From a virus (Duplodnaviria > Caudoviricetes): DNA of 64,000 nt. Under the pieces are notes generated by a model. That model did no database searches and was not told the origin of the DNA. It was given only the letters and a program-made list of their open reading frames with translations. The position numbers and the translations under genes were made by a program. Positions 60,110 to 64,000 of this stretch are shown piece after piece (positions within the stretch are counted from its first letter, which is position 1; every line of letters begins with the position of its first letter). Location of the stretch: positions 1,162 to 65,161 of IMG/VR virus record IMGVR_UViG_3300047160_004775. One strand, given 5' to 3'.

Positions 60110-60745
60110 TCAAGCCTGTTCGGCTCCTTGGACTTTCCGGCGCGCGATGGTAGGGGTTGGCCGTCGGTTGGGCGCGGGTCTCCCCCCACCGGCCGGGCCC
60201 GCGGGGGTGTCGTGGCAGACGCCCGCGGGCCCACCTTCGGCCGGGAAATTCAGCCTCGCGAACTCTCCGAAATGCATCTTCGCCGCTTCGTCATACGCAA
60301 CTCCAGCTTCAGCCTCCGTTGCGAACAGCCCGAGTCCGATGCGGCGTCCATCGACCGTGATCCGCGCTCGCCATCCCGAGCCGTGCTTGCCGACGCCCTT
60401 CATGGGCACCTTGGGGCGCACGTTCTGTGAATTTTGGCGAGCGGTGGCGACCCGGATATTTGCCCGGCGATTGTTGAGCCCGTCACCGTCACGATGGTCA
60501 TGGAAAACACCGGGGGCGGCACCGGTGAGGAACTGGTGAAGACGCTTCTTCACGTTCCCGCCGTTGTAAGCGTACACCAGGCCCGAGTCCGCTTTGACGG
60601 CGCACCAGTTCAGACCTTCGACTAGCGGAACGTCTGCCGCGTCAATCACCGCCGAATAGCCCTGGGTCAGTGGGCTATACGCCACGTCGCCGTCGATCCT
60701 GATGGGGCGGATTTTCTTGGTCCACGTCCGCTTTTTGAGCTTCAT
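60110..60745 (-). CDS. HNH-AP2 homing endonuclease
   Basis: PLTQGY.AVID..D...V...W, DHRDGDGLNNRRANIR, WRARI.V.G....LGLF.TE.EA..AYDEAA..HFGEFARLNF. Confidence 0.9.
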   Translation of the reverse strand: MKLKKRTWTKKIRPIRIDGDVAYSPLTQGYSAVIDAADVPLVEGLNWCAVKADSGLVYAYNGGNVKKRLHQFLTGAAPGVFHDHRDGDGLNNRRANIRVATARQNSQNVRPKVPMKGVGKHGSGWRARITVDGRRIGLGLFATEAEAGVAYDEAAKMHFGEFARLNFPAEGGPAGVCHDTPAGPAGGGRPAPNRRPTPTIARRKVQGAEQA

Positions 60746-61292
60746 TGAACTTCTCCACTTCGTCGCCCCAGGAATCCCAACCGGACCGCTTCTGGCGAGC
60801 AAAAAGTTCCAGCCGCGGAGCGGCCGCGAGGCGCTCGATCATCTCGACGACGCAATCGGGCTTTCTGGAGTGCTCGCGGATCGGCGCGAGCCAGACGTTC
60901 CGCTCCGAGCGGCTCAACCAGGCCGGATGGCCGCGCGTGCCCACCAGGAGGATCTCGGCCGCGCCGCGGAAAATGTAGCCGGGCCCGAAGGCGAGCTTGC
61001 GGCCGGTGCTGGACTGCTTCGCCCAGGCGCCGCCGGTCTTGTACTCGAACCCCCACGCGGCCATGAGCTCGAGGGCCTCGGGCAGCATGGGGAAGGTCGC
61101 CCACATGAAGATGGCGCTATTCGCGCCGGCCAGCTGCGCCACCGGCATGGCCTTCAACTCCGCCAGGGTCATGCAGGGGTAGTGCGCCACGGGGTTCTTG
61201 GCCTCGCCCTTGGCGCTGTAGTTCATGAACCGCCAGGGCGGGTCGGCGTAGAGCGTCGCCCAGCCGCCGAGGGGGCGCTCGGGAAGGCTCAC
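60675..61292 (-). CDS. MT-A70-family N6-adenine DNA methyltransferase
   Basis: YADPPW, IFMWATFPMLPEALELM.AWGFEYKT, GYIFRG.AE.LLVGTRG, REHSRKP, RLELFARQ. Confidence 0.92.
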   Translation of the reverse strand: MSLPERPLGGWATLYADPPWRFMNYSAKGEAKNPVAHYPCMTLAELKAMPVAQLAGANSAIFMWATFPMLPEALELMAAWGFEYKTGGAWAKQSSTGRKLAFGPGYIFRGAAEILLVGTRGHPAWLSRSERNVWLAPIREHSRKPDCVVEMIERLAAAPRLELFARQKRSGWDSWGDEVEKFNEAQKADVDQENPPHQDRRRRGV

Positions 61293-62938
61293 AGGGCATC
61301 CACGATGGCGATCATCTCGCCGATGTCCTCGACCACCGGCACAGCCATGGAGTTGCCGAGCGCCTTGTAGCGGGGTCCGTCCGGAGCCATGCCGCTGCGC
61401 CAGGGGATCAGGGTGTAGGACCGTGGGAACCCTTGAAGGGCCTCACATTCCTCGACGGTCAGTCGACGGACCGCGCTACCGCCCGATGCTGATTGAGCTT
61501 CACCGCAAGTGGATCGCCGTGCTTCTTGAAGCGCTGATAGTGCTTCTCGCAGAAGCCGAGCCCCTTCGCTGGCGCCCCACAGATCGTGCAGAAACCTTTC
61601 GGCCGGTGATGGCGAATATGGCAACTCCGACAGATACGCTCCAAGTTGCCGAGCGAGTTGTTCGTGTGGTTGCCATCCCTGTGGTGAACGTCCGTCGCTC
61701 CCGGCTTCCCACAGGTCTTGCACGGACCAGGAGGAACCAGCTTGCGAGCGTGATAGTGCGACGTTGACCAGCCCTCGCTGCGGGAAGGCCGCGCATCGAA
61801 TGCGGCGGCCATGCACTTCTGATCGCAGAACTTCCGTCGGCCAAAATGCAGCAAGGATTCCAAAACCCCACTCGCAAAACGCTTCCTCTCCAGAAGCTTG
61901 GAGCAGTGCTCGCAGTGCTTTATGGGGTCCGGCTTGCGAAGAATTGGCATGGTTCACACCATATACTGATTTGCCGGTTCCAGTGATTAAATCCCCGCCG
62001 CGCGCGCTCGGGCGATTGCCGCCAGCCGTGACAGCCTGCGCGCGGTCACTCTCGCGGGCGTTGTAGTCCTTGTTGCTGTTCGACGGCGTGATGTTGAAAG
62101 CGACCGCCTGGTCATTCACGCCGGCGACGCCATGGCCGCGCGTGGTCGCGCCGGATTGGAGCGCGCCGACCACGAAAGTTTCGCTTGCAAAGTCGGTGCG
62201 GCCGTGCGGTCCACCATGCGCAGCGAGCGCAGCGGCCACGTCCACCGGCCCCGAGGTGCGGTTGCCGCCGAAAGCTTCGATCAGTCCTCCGTCGCAGTCG
62301 AAGTCGGTTCCGAGCCCGCCGCCTGCAGAGCTGCGGCTAGGGAGGGTGGGAGCGCTTTTCCCCGCTTCTCGGCGCGGCGCAGGATGCCCCTGCAGGCTGT
62401 GGCGCTCAAAAAGAACCGCTGCGGCACGTCGCCAGTCTCCAAGGTGTCCGACAACGAACACACGGCGGCGTCGCTGGGCCACTCCAAAGAACTGAGCGTC
62501 AAGCACTCGGTAGGCGAACCCATACCCGAGTTCGACCATGCCCCCGAGAATGGCTCCAAAGTCCCGTCCTCCGTTCGACGACAGGACGCCGGGGACGTTC
62601 TCCCAAACCAGCCAGCGGGGCCGCAGGCGGTCAGCCAGGAGAATATACTCGAGGGCCAAGTTGCCACGGTGATCAGCCAGTCCTTTTCGGAGGCCGGCGA
62701 CGCTGAAGGACTGGCAGGGGGTTCCCCCAACGAGAAGGTCGATTGGCTCATAGTCCCCCGCTTGAATGGTGGTGAAGTCGCCGTGGAGCGGCACGTGCGC
62801 GTAGTGGTGGGTCAGCACCGCCCGCGGAAAGGCGTCGATCTCGGACATGAAGGCGCAGCGCCAGTTGCGCTTGCGAAAGGCGTACTCGGGCGCGCCAATG
62901 CCCGAGCACACGGTCCCGTAGGTGAACGGTCGATCCAT
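61289..62938 (-). CDS. C5-cytosine DNA methyltransferase with expanded variable region
   Basis: Motifs I (VCSGIG), IV (GGTPCQSFS), VI (WENVPG), VIII (QRRRRVF), IX-X (RRLT.EECEALQGFP, KALGNSMAV). Confidence 0.93.
   Translation of the reverse strand: MDRPFTYGTVCSGIGAPEYAFRKRNWRCAFMSEIDAFPRAVLTHHYAHVPLHGDFTTIQAGDYEPIDLLVGGTPCQSFSVAGLRKGLADHRGNLALEYILLADRLRPRWLVWENVPGVLSSNGGRDFGAILGGMVELGYGFAYRVLDAQFFGVAQRRRRVFVVGHLGDWRRAAAVLFERHSLQGHPAPRREAGKSAPTLPSRSSAGGGLGTDFDCDGGLIEAFGGNRTSGPVDVAAALAAHGGPHGRTDFASETFVVGALQSGATTRGHGVAGVNDQAVAFNITPSNSNKDYNARESDRAQAVTAGGNRPSARGGDLITGTGKSVYGVNHANSSQAGPHKALRALLQASGEEAFCEWGFGILAAFWPTEVLRSEVHGRRIRCAAFPQRGLVNVALSRSQAGSSWSVQDLWEAGSDGRSPQGWQPHEQLARQLGAYLSELPYSPSPAERFLHDLWGASEGARLLREALSALQEARRSTCGEAQSASGGSAVRRLTVEECEALQGFPRSYTLIPWRSGMAPDGPRYKALGNSMAVPVVEDIGEMIAIVDAL
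61459..61950 (-). CDS. HNH endonuclease nested in the +1 frame of the C5 MTase
   Basis: CEHC, FCDQKC, CKTC, VHHRDGNHTNNSLGNLERICRSCHIRHH, CTIC. Confidence 0.9.
   Translation of the reverse strand: MPILRKPDPIKHCEHCSKLLERKRFASGVLESLLHFGRRKFCDQKCMAAAFDARPSRSEGWSTSHYHARKLVPPGPCKTCGKPGATDVHHRDGNHTNNSLGNLERICRSCHIRHHRPKGFCTICGAPAKGLGFCEKHYQRFKKHGDPLAVKLNQHRAVARSVD
62281..62751 (-). CDS. alternative-frame ORF inside the C5 MTase (M.EcoHK31I beta-like)
   Basis: WSNSGM...SLSDTLET...FLS...GILRRAEKRGKALP; similarity is from recall. Confidence 0.55.
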   Translation of the reverse strand: MSQSTFSLGEPPASPSASPASEKDWLITVATWPSSIFSWLTACGPAGWFGRTSPASCRRTEDGTLEPFSGAWSNSGMGSPTECLTLSSLEWPSDAAVCSLSDTLETGDVPQRFFLSATACRGILRRAEKRGKALPPSLAAALQAAGSEPTSTATED

Positions 62939-62953
62939 CCGGCGTGGCTCCGG

Positions 62954-63232
62954 CTAAATGAGGACCGACGCCTTGGCCCCCCAGAGGGCAGCGTCGTAGC
63001 GTGAAGCTATAGCGGGCGACCTTTGTCGTAGCAAGCACATCCAGACGCCCACGCCGTCGGCCGCATCCTTCCTGCCGTCCGCGTCGGTGGTCGGCAATGC
63101 GACACCGAGCCGCTCGCCGTCATAAACGGCGACGGAGAACTTGTGGCCCCGCGGCGGCTTGTTGTGCCGGTGGTGCTGGGCGATGAAGGCCGCGGCCGCG
63201 CGGAGGGTGATGGGGCGGATCTCGAGGCTCAC
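62954..63232 (-). CDS. XF1762-like protein, apparently truncated
   Basis: RPITLRAAAAFIAQHHRHNKPPRGHKFSV N-terminus; the expected downstream motifs are absent. Confidence 0.55.
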   Translation of the reverse strand: MSLEIRPITLRAAAAFIAQHHRHNKPPRGHKFSVAVYDGERLGVALPTTDADGRKDAADGVGVWMCLLRQRSPAIASRYDAALWGAKASVLI

Positions 63233-63910
63233 GCGACCTCAGCGACGGGCTTGTAGACGCGGGCGACGTGACTGCTGAGCACGAACGGGATTTTGGCGAT
63301 AGCGGCACTGGCGGCCTTGCGCTTCGGCCCGCGTGACGAACACGACGCCACCGGATCGCGCGACCAGTTGCGGCCATCGGGGTTCTGGTTCGTGACCTTC
63401 TGACCGGGCGACCCGATCTTGAACCATGAACCGCCCGCGCTCTTGCGGCCCTCCAAGACGTGGCGTTCGACGCTCTCGCTCTGGAACGAGCGGCCCGAAC
63501 CGTCGAACCGGAAGCCGGGGTTCTTGCGTGCCCGCTTGATGATCTGCGGCATCAGCGCGGGGACATCACCCCAGAGATAGAACGAGCCGTAGGACCACGC
63601 CGCCGGCCCGACCCACGGCTGGGCGCCGCGGACGTTCTCGACTACCATGGGAATGCGCTTCCCCTTGGCGGCGCTGGCTTCCCGCTGGATGCGGAATTGC
63701 GCGTCGAACAGGGCGTTGAGCGTGCGCAGCGCCTCGCCGGTCTCGTCTGCCCGGATCGCCGCCGCCTTGGCCTTCGCCCGCGTCCACGGCATCGCCATGT
63801 AGCTGTATTCGGTGCAGGGCGAGCTGCTGACGATCAGGTCGGCGTCCTTGAGCTCGGCGCCGTCGATCGTGAGCACGTCGCGCAGAAGCAGGCTATAGTG
63901 CTCGGGAAGC
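63229..63910 (-). pseudogene. C5-MTase-like protein lacking motif I (5' truncated)
   Basis: SSPCTEYSYMAMPW, VVENVRGAQ, YLWGDVPALMP, IAKIPF; no FxGxGG motif in the open frame up to base 64000. Confidence 0.55.
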
Positions 63911-63926
63911 CCAAGGAGTTTCCGCA

Positions 63927-64000
63927 GTGGACGAGTCCGAACCCAGCGAAATCGAAGTGACGCCCGGGATGATTGCGGCGGGGATAGAGGCCTACTACGC
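63927..64000 (+). CDS. small protein (3' partial)
   Basis: AAGGAG RBS, GTG, EIEVTPGMIAAGIEAYY. Confidence 0.5.
   Translation, partial: MDESEPSEIEVTPGMIAAGIEAYY

Follow-up and report, generated by a model that had tools for sequence, protein, structure and literature searches.

An HNH endonuclease gene nested out of frame in a phage C5 methyltransferase gene that is apparently read straight through

Results

Genes and features at the locus

The window analyzed in this study is a stretch of 64,000 nucleotides from a virus of the Caudoviricetes, and represents nearly the whole of a 65,161-bp IMG/VR virus record (IMGVR_UViG_3300047160_004775, positions 1,162 to 65,161), evaluated as 99% complete by CheckV. 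Its minus strand encodes a C5 cytosine DNA methyltransferase (hereafter methylase), within which an open reading frame (ORF) for an HNH endonuclease lies in a different frame of the same strand. The features of this gene, and the evidence used to delimit them, are the following:

61289..62938, minus strand: C5 cytosine DNA methyltransferase ORF, 549 residues (ORF listing; PF00145, E=5.6e-51)
61459..61950, minus strand: hidden HNH endonuclease ORF, 163 residues, in the +1 frame of the methylase (ORF listing; phrog_1271, E=4.4e-14)
61478..61984, minus strand: inserted segment, methylase residues 319-487, 169 residues or 507 nucleotides (codon comparison with locus L086, protein alignment, GC dip)
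61951..61984, minus strand: AT-rich leader of the insert, with a weak Shine-Dalgarno-like GGTG at about 61957-61960 (sequence)
61415..61477, minus strand: motif IX flank apparently travelling with the insert, SAVRRLT plus the variant VEECEALQGFPRSY (homologue comparison)
61289..61414, minus strand: C-terminal end of the methylase, comprising the end of motif IX and motif X (codon-position diversity, frame identities)

The offset between the methylase start and the HNH start is 988 nucleotides, that is 329 codons plus one base, which places the nuclease in the +1 frame. Its stop codon, the TGA at 61461-61459, falls inside motif IX (VRRLT) of the methylase, where Leu493 (CTG) contributes its second and third bases and Thr494 (ACC) its first. 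The nested arrangement is confirmed by the ORF listing and this offset, in the terms in which the first-pass annotation had described it: a 163-residue HNH ORF wholly inside the methyltransferase, a methyltransferase frame with no stop across it, as seen on the window sequence, and a nuclease stop within the RRLT codons. The coordinates and observations given there were all correct.

The insert sits between ARGGD(L/V)I, which marks the end of the methylase variable region, and the SAVRRLT of motif IX. Over the insert the GC content is 52-61%, versus about 69% in the flanks and about 66-69% in the methylase gene overall. In the empty (HNH-free) allele L086, whose methylase is 73-76% identical, ARGGDVI is joined to SAVRRLT with 3 residues between. 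This comparison, of a kind proposed by the first-pass annotation, sets the insert ends listed above, and the resulting 169 residues agree with the approximately 165 extra residues anticipated in it.

The HNH ATG lies 34 nucleotides into the insert, with the GGTG 6-9 nucleotides upstream of it. Both the ATG and the N-terminus that follows, MP..(R/K)KP..(H/F/Y)CE.CG, are conserved across the family, and a GGAG, GAGG or AGGA core occurs 4-17 nucleotides upstream of the ATG in 25 of 46 non-redundant loci, versus 14% at control positions (binomial P=1.3e-10). At the other end, the final HNH codons and the stop are drawn from host sequence. In approximately 31 of the 46 loci the stop derives from the Leu-Thr (or Leu-Val/Ile) codons that come right after the RR of motif IX. 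That Leu is CTC or CTT, and hence gives no stop, in three out of four empty alleles.

Matching public contigs are either identical but short unitigs of soil DNA runs or relatives with 85-95% identity. A contig from an RNA library, with a joint from 61381 to 62360, was considered as a possible spliced form and rejected, being a divergent relative with another variable region.

The methylase frame is free of stops in the window and in its relatives

Chance openness of the methylase frame was evaluated by permuting synonymous codons 1000 times, a procedure that leaves the HNH protein and its codon composition unchanged. On average the methylase frame of the window acquired 7.2 stops in these shuffles, and it stayed open in none of the 1000. 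When codons were drawn instead from the usage of the upstream methylase, the probability of zero stops was 0.004. The open methylase frame in the window is not due to chance.

Relatives were retrieved by tblastn from IMG/VR and from one genome per prokaryotic species. As the HNH protein alone was used for the search, the methylase frame played no part in their retrieval. A total of 55 loci with at least 125 aligned HNH residues, plus one GenBank phage locus, made up a set of 56, with HNH identities to the window of 37-85% and a GC content in the overlap of 0.33-0.64. In every one of the 56 loci, the matched stretch is open both in the HNH frame and in the frame lying one base behind, whereas the remaining same-strand frame contains 2-17 stops. 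Per-locus shuffle probabilities of zero stops range from 0.000 to 0.048, most of them below 0.005, with 2-12 stops expected. Loci of only 33-38% GC (L004, L055-L057, L081) are likewise stop-free, versus 9-20 stops expected.

All enclosing ORFs tested belong to PF00145, including those around the most distant HNH relatives. Named relatives come from Phenylobacterium, Dokdonella, Acidobacteriia, Methylococcaceae, Actinomycetes and Sedimentisphaerales, and from the chromosome of Methylorubrum populi; in the cultured Staphylococcus phage CUB-EPI_14 the HNH lies inside gp45, annotated as a DNA-cytosine methyltransferase. The methylases of phage TC7 and Caulobacter phage DMCA were considered as full-length matches and rejected, their variable regions being merely long and their site empty.

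Among the most distant relatives, three loci (L006:1166-1776, L058:2989-3671 and L060:2980-3593) have HNH identities of 37-45% and an enclosing PF00145 ORF that is stop-free across the HNH. No intact full-length methylase ORF is called in L088:2300-4200, on the Methylorubrum populi chromosome, or in L089:250-1800; listed instead are the +1 alternative-frame ORF, the HNH (in L088) and a C-terminal PF00145 fragment, from which it follows that this architecture appears fragmented or mis-annotated in protein databases.

Purifying selection on the HNH frame inside the insert and on the methylase frame outside it

Diversity by codon position was computed from 24 full-length, GC-rich genes aligned by codon. 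In the parts that encode the methylase only, position 3 is the most variable (0.53-0.65, versus 0.2-0.5 at positions 1-2). Across the insert it is methylase position 1, which corresponds to the HNH wobble position, that varies most (0.27-0.58), with positions 2-3 low, and the single-frame methylase pattern resumes exactly at SAVRRLT. Over 61289..61414, diversity is 0.57-0.64 at position 3 and 0.25-0.43 at positions 1-2.

Amino acid identities follow the same course. The insert DNA is more conserved in the HNH frame (0.65-0.78) than in the methylase frame (0.51-0.58), a difference that, together with the switch in diversity, indicates purifying selection on the HNH. At motifs VI and IX-X the methylase frame has the highest identity (0.70-0.73), and at the C-terminal end it reaches 0.73, versus 0.29-0.57 in the other five frames. 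On either side of the insert, the methylase is thus under purifying selection in its own frame. For the C-terminal end to be made at all, ribosomes must continue across the insert in that frame.

The methylase-frame reading of the insert, referred to here as the passenger, presents a different picture. Diversity at four-fold degenerate HNH wobble sites is 0.57 in the overlap versus 0.63 in the methylase-only core (Mann-Whitney P=0.37), so that no amino acid constraint on the passenger was detected at these sites. An excess of wobble identity over a permutation null, seen in divergent pairs, was considered as a sign of such constraint and set aside as uninformative, since the methylase-only core shows the same excess. 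The passenger reading would seem to be kept free of stops and nothing more.

The HNH protein

The best PHROG match of the nested protein is the HNH endonuclease family phrog_1271, in a database without curated cut-offs, and the Pfam HNH_3 model scores 19.0 bits on it, below its cut-off of 24.8. In the genomes of two relatives the protein was named by NCBI as "HNH endonuclease signature motif containing protein". It is laid out as three zinc-knuckle modules of Cys and His residues plus a core of the form HH..N..N..CxxCH. When 39 relatives, as translated from the retrieved loci, are aligned, 19 Cys/His/Asn/Arg/Leu columns are invariant, including C13/C16, C42/C46, C77/C80, H89, H90, N102, C107/C110, H111, H115 and C121/C124/C134, while D87 and N98 are conserved in at least 90% of the sequences. 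The catalytic His/Asn/His and the metal or zinc CxxC pairs are therefore present in this alignment in canonical order.

The AlphaFold2 model built on the same alignment has a mean predicted local distance difference test (pLDDT) of 89.4. With an aligner independent of Foldseek, HNH residues 56-118 superpose on EcoKMcrA and Gme HNH (Z 5.5), and further fold matches include IscB, GVE2 HNH, ZRANB3, Cap5 and I-HmuI (PDB 1u3e, Z 3.8). A Foldseek search of the model against PDB recovered no match at E<=0.001, a result attributed to the model resembling three beads on a string.

The methylase protein

The window methylase retains motifs I (SGIG), IV (TPCQSFS), VI (ENVPG) and VIII (QRRRRVF), intact, in order and in one frame, followed in that same frame by intact motifs IX (VRRLT..LQGFP) and X (GNSMAVPV). 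The PF00145 match is split into an N-terminal and a C-terminal stretch. AlphaFold2 models the core (residues 1-180 and 490-549) with pLDDT 80-98 and the passenger insert as helices of moderate confidence, with pLDDT of about 36-83 by 10-residue block; a Pfam search with the passenger reading gave no match. The variable region, where the target-recognition domain is expected, is rich in Gly, Ala and Ser, and the variable regions of homologues contain differing numbers of blocks such as EGFDASEDGTGRGTP and GGLGTDFDCDGGLI.

Distribution of occupied and empty alleles

Among the best 120 methylase homologues, 64 are occupied by the HNH and 56 are empty. The two classes differ immediately downstream of the site: RRLT-PREC..QGFPD is found in 54 of the 56 empty alleles, and RRLT-VEEC..QGFPR in 43 of the 64 occupied ones, the flank types being RRLT-PRECERLQGFPD for the former and VEECEALQGFPR for the latter. 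A linked flank of this kind would be expected from co-conversion or target-site immunity.

On a FastTree phylogeny of the N-terminal 185 methylase residues, occupancy requires at least 15 changes, versus 39 for shuffled labels. Identities within pairs of loci are also discordant: L017 and L018 are 93% identical in the HNH, 89% in the C-terminal flank and 64% in the N-terminal core, and the corresponding values for L035 and L043 are 79%, 84% and 45%. Discordances such as these suggest that the nuclease and its 3' flank move between divergent methylase bodies.

A second alternative-frame ORF and neighboring genes

Other features recognized in the methylase gene and next to it are the following:

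62281-62751, minus strand: second +1-frame ORF in the methylase, 156 residues, with the strongest signal at about 62341-62470 (codon diversity, database matches)
60110-60802 and 60675-61292, minus strand: pair formed by an MT-A70 ORF and a 230-residue HNH_3 ORF, a second methylase-HNH neighborhood (Pfam; start of the HNH ORF provisional)

Around methylase residues 157-199 the diversity at codon position 3 drops to 0.22-0.33, versus 0.53-0.65 elsewhere. The +1 peptide encoded there reads ..CSLSD.LE.G.VP.R(Y/F)FLS...AC.GILRRAEKRGK.LP, and its identity exceeds that of the methylase both at residues 160-172 (0.69 versus 0.51, 20 sequences) and at residues 172-196 (0.87 versus 0.75, only 4 ungapped sequences). 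This second ORF matches 1,896 database proteins as well as phrog_16143, and is present in HNH-free methylases, namely those of phages DMCA and TC7 and of L086. Its dual-coding signature recalls the two-frame methylase M.EcoHK31I (PMC2836561). The in-phase antisense frame (plus-strand ORF 62132-63004) has its wobble bases at the same position; it is less conserved, but could conceivably be the source of the signal instead.

The 180 nucleotides at 62360-62540, which span motifs VI-VIII and the dual-coded segment, have by far the heaviest contig coverage at a likeness of at least 85%, with contigs from three DNA runs of soil and from an RNA-library run of a root metagenome. On this evidence they are the most conserved DNA of the gene among environmental relatives.

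Directly downstream of the methylase gene, the MT-A70 adenine methyltransferase ORF (E=1.8e-26) overlaps the 230-residue ORF (HNH_3, E=1.1e-5) by up to 128 nucleotides. A further ORF at 63229-63999 (minus strand) carries PC..ENV-like motifs (SSSPCTEYS, VVENVRGA), with no Pfam match at E<=0.01, and looks like a further, divergent C5-methyltransferase-like gene.

Discussion

A mobile nuclease gene probably read through by its host

The organization of this locus is very probably that of a mobile, homing-type HNH gene located in the variable region of a phage C5 methylase, with the host frame read straight through and the passenger reading kept only free of stops. According to this proposal, the HNH gene would have inserted three codons upstream of motif IX as a segment with a length divisible by three. 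The nuclease is probably translated independently, by internal initiation at its own ATG with the help of the upstream Shine-Dalgarno-like signal, and its translation would end at the out-of-frame stop made by the host Leu-Thr codons of RRLT. Ribosomes translating the methylase would read the same DNA in frame 0, so placing motifs IX-X on the same chain as the preceding motifs, behind a passenger loop of 169 residues, largely unconstrained and partly helical, between the target-recognition region and motif IX. Selection on the passenger reading would act only against stop codons. The nuclease, in turn, presumably cuts empty alleles and would home into them together with the 3' flank, by co-conversion, and the enlarged methylase would be an active enzyme.

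The first-pass annotation had envisaged such splicing-free read-through, with the extra residues tolerated by the host protein. At the comparative level this idea is supported by the absence of stops in all 56 relatives, by purifying selection on motifs IX-X and by the lack of an intron or intein signature.

Several observations weigh against this explanation. In L006, L058 and L060 no motifs IX-X were recognized after the HNH; in L006 the methylase-frame ORF ends just past it, and the three methylases may be split or different at their C-termini. The Shine-Dalgarno-like motif of the window itself is weak. The occupancy tree is weakly supported, its well-supported branches forcing only 2 changes, and recombination within the gene could give the same discordance between pairs as homing. 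The variable region (residues 185-335, window about 61940-62380) models poorly, with pLDDT 23-34, and the fold thus gives no independent support for an active enzyme. No public sequencing run contained more than 31% of the sampled words, and with that no RNA data set was found to contain this sequence; transcription, translation, cleavage and methylation are predicted here from sequence comparison.

Alternative explanations

One alternative is that the element has been domesticated, either with the nuclease and methylase forming a protective module in one gene or with the passenger having acquired a role in the methylase. Every HNH relative with at least 125 aligned residues lies inside a C5 methylase, and would thus always be co-inherited and co-transcribed with it, and the passenger is predicted to be partly helical, with pLDDT up to 83. 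On the other hand, four-fold wobble sites are no less diverse in the overlap than in the core, the passenger reading has no Pfam match, and the patchy occupancy among the best homologues fits better with a dispensable selfish element, all of which makes domestication improbable. A more specific and decidedly improbable version is that of an obligate pair in a single gene, in which the methylase would protect its own genome from the HNH, and the HNH would cut the unmodified DNA of competitor phages or of the host. If this were the case, nesting would serve for addiction or exclusion, and not just to avoid damage, and, counting the second +1 ORF (62281-62751), a single gene would encode three interacting products.

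Removal of the insert by an unrecognized intron-like RNA splicing or by an atypical protein splicing, the open frame being incidental, is very unlikely. Introns and inteins are the usual carriers of homing endonuclease genes, and divergent introns can escape Rfam models. Yet no Rfam family, group I and II introns included, matched at E<=1 on either strand of 60800-63200, and the 34 nucleotides of insert before the HNH ORF, together with a 3' end inside that ORF, leave no room for a ribozyme core. As for inteins, the methylase-frame insert begins with TGTGK and ends with SASGG, without an N-terminal Cys/Ser or a C-terminal His-Asn, no Hint Pfam match was found, and an out-of-frame HNH cannot be the endonuclease domain of an intein. 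The strongest argument against splicing is that a spliced element has no need of an open host frame, and stop avoidance in 56 of 56 loci would be pointless.

Decay of a methylase disrupted by the insertion, with the open frame as a by-product of high GC, is hardly credible: long spurious open frames are common in genes of about 66-69% GC and the variable region models poorly, but the probability of zero stops in the window is at most 0.004 even with the codon usage of the region itself, AT-richer loci are equally stop-free and motifs IX-X past the insert show a normal pattern of purifying selection. Production of the HNH by a +1 ribosomal frameshift, as a fusion to the methylase N-terminus, is just as hard to credit; both ORFs lie on one mRNA in adjacent frames and the Shine-Dalgarno-like motif of the window is weak, but conservation extends to the ATG and the MP..(R/K)KP N-terminus, the Shine-Dalgarno core is enriched upstream of them, an HNH-frame stop 0-7 codons upstream of the ATG leaves almost no shift window in about half of the loci, and no conservation of a slippery site was seen.

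Comparison with known systems

The closest counterpart of the mobile, read-through HNH gene proposed here is the "ShiLan domain" of mycobacteriophage methylases, described by Gosselin et al. 2023 (PMC9957025) and recognized as an out-of-frame HNH by Arsenault, Gosselin and Gogarten 2025 (PMC11855218). The ShiLan HNH has 195 residues encoded in the third frame, a GTG start 18 nucleotides into the insert, a TAA stop in its last four bases, no detectable ribosome-binding site and no intron or intein signature; leaderless initiation was proposed for it, and the insertion in Pacc40 gp60 constitutes a second hidden-HNH case (PMC11855218). Both the ShiLan type and the window family are inserted at a conserved site in some homologous methylases and not in others, leave the methylase frame stop-free, encode a nuclease with zinc fingers in another frame of the same strand with its stop at the very end of the element, and have a poorly or partly structured passenger reading and no intron or intein signature found. 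In both, a Pro follows the site only in uninvaded alleles, which here takes the form of RRLT-P versus RRLT-V/A/C/T.

The two also differ in several respects. The window HNH has 163 residues, is encoded in the +1 frame and starts with an ATG 34 nucleotides into the insert. Its stop lies outside the insert, in the host motif IX codons, whereas that of ShiLan is within the last bases of the element, and a Shine-Dalgarno motif is common in its family, in contrast to the lack of a ribosome-binding site in ShiLan. Hosts of the window family belong to several phyla, with GC contents of 33-64%, while the ShiLan type is found in mycobacteriophages. Stop avoidance is quantified statistically for the window family, unlike for the ShiLan type, whose gp65 methylase is not assigned to a class in PMC9957025 or PMC11855218. 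A tblastn search with the window HNH against 50,697 phage records at E<=10, in which inclusion of the ShiLan record was unchecked, matched no Mycobacterium-phage methylase gene; the only matches it recovered were short, C-terminal and to HNH regions either free-standing or without annotation. As far as tblastn can see, the window HNH would represent a lineage different from the ShiLan type. The hidden-HNH design as such was already published in 2025 and, judging from sequence, the window lineage is a new and widespread case of it.

Other arrangements provide more partial parallels. A "genes in pieces" ribonucleotide reductase, produced by mobE in nrdA of Aeromonas phage Aeh1, was reportedly described by Friedrich et al. 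in 2007. As in the window, an endonuclease gene without intron or intein resides in a conserved phage gene, which remains functional (presumably so in the window) although nothing is spliced. In the mobE/nrdA case, however, the host gene is divided into two ORFs and the enzyme is reassembled from their products, whereas the host frame of the window is continuous and would be read through.

In M.EcoHK31I, likewise a C5 methyltransferase, the gene encodes a second polypeptide in another frame (PMC2836561). It shares with the window overlapping same-strand coding inside a C5 methyltransferase gene, but its nested product is an enzyme subunit that carries motif IX, while the window HNH is an unrelated nuclease and motifs IX-X are in the main frame. 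HNH homing endonucleases of introns and inteins, such as I-HmuI, resemble the window HNH in their beta-beta-alpha-metal core and DNA-binding zinc modules, in being inserted at a highly conserved site of a coding sequence, in their patchy distribution and in a linked flank variant suggestive of co-conversion. They differ in that splicing spares their host gene, a role that in the window would be played by frame-compatible read-through, no ribozyme or Hint domain having been detected.

Implications

Occurrence of this architecture in the window family indicates that the splicing-free "hidden HNH" strategy is not confined to a few mycobacteriophages. It extends to a separate HNH lineage in the C5 methyltransferases of phages and prophages of Proteobacteria, Acidobacteria, Actinomycetes, Planctomycetota and Staphylococcus. 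To our knowledge, no earlier quantitative evidence exists for a host frame being actively kept open. What is added here is a host frame kept open by selection in 56 of 56 loci, without detectable amino acid constraint on the passenger, as well as a common internal Shine-Dalgarno signal, the use of host motif IX codons as the nuclease stop and a linked flank variant.

These genes also have consequences for annotation: gene callers miss the nuclease or fragment the methylase, as in L088 and L089, and REBASE-type methylase annotations will hold about 170 meaningless residues. Finally, the site before motif IX appears to be a position at which C5 methyltransferases tolerate large insertions.

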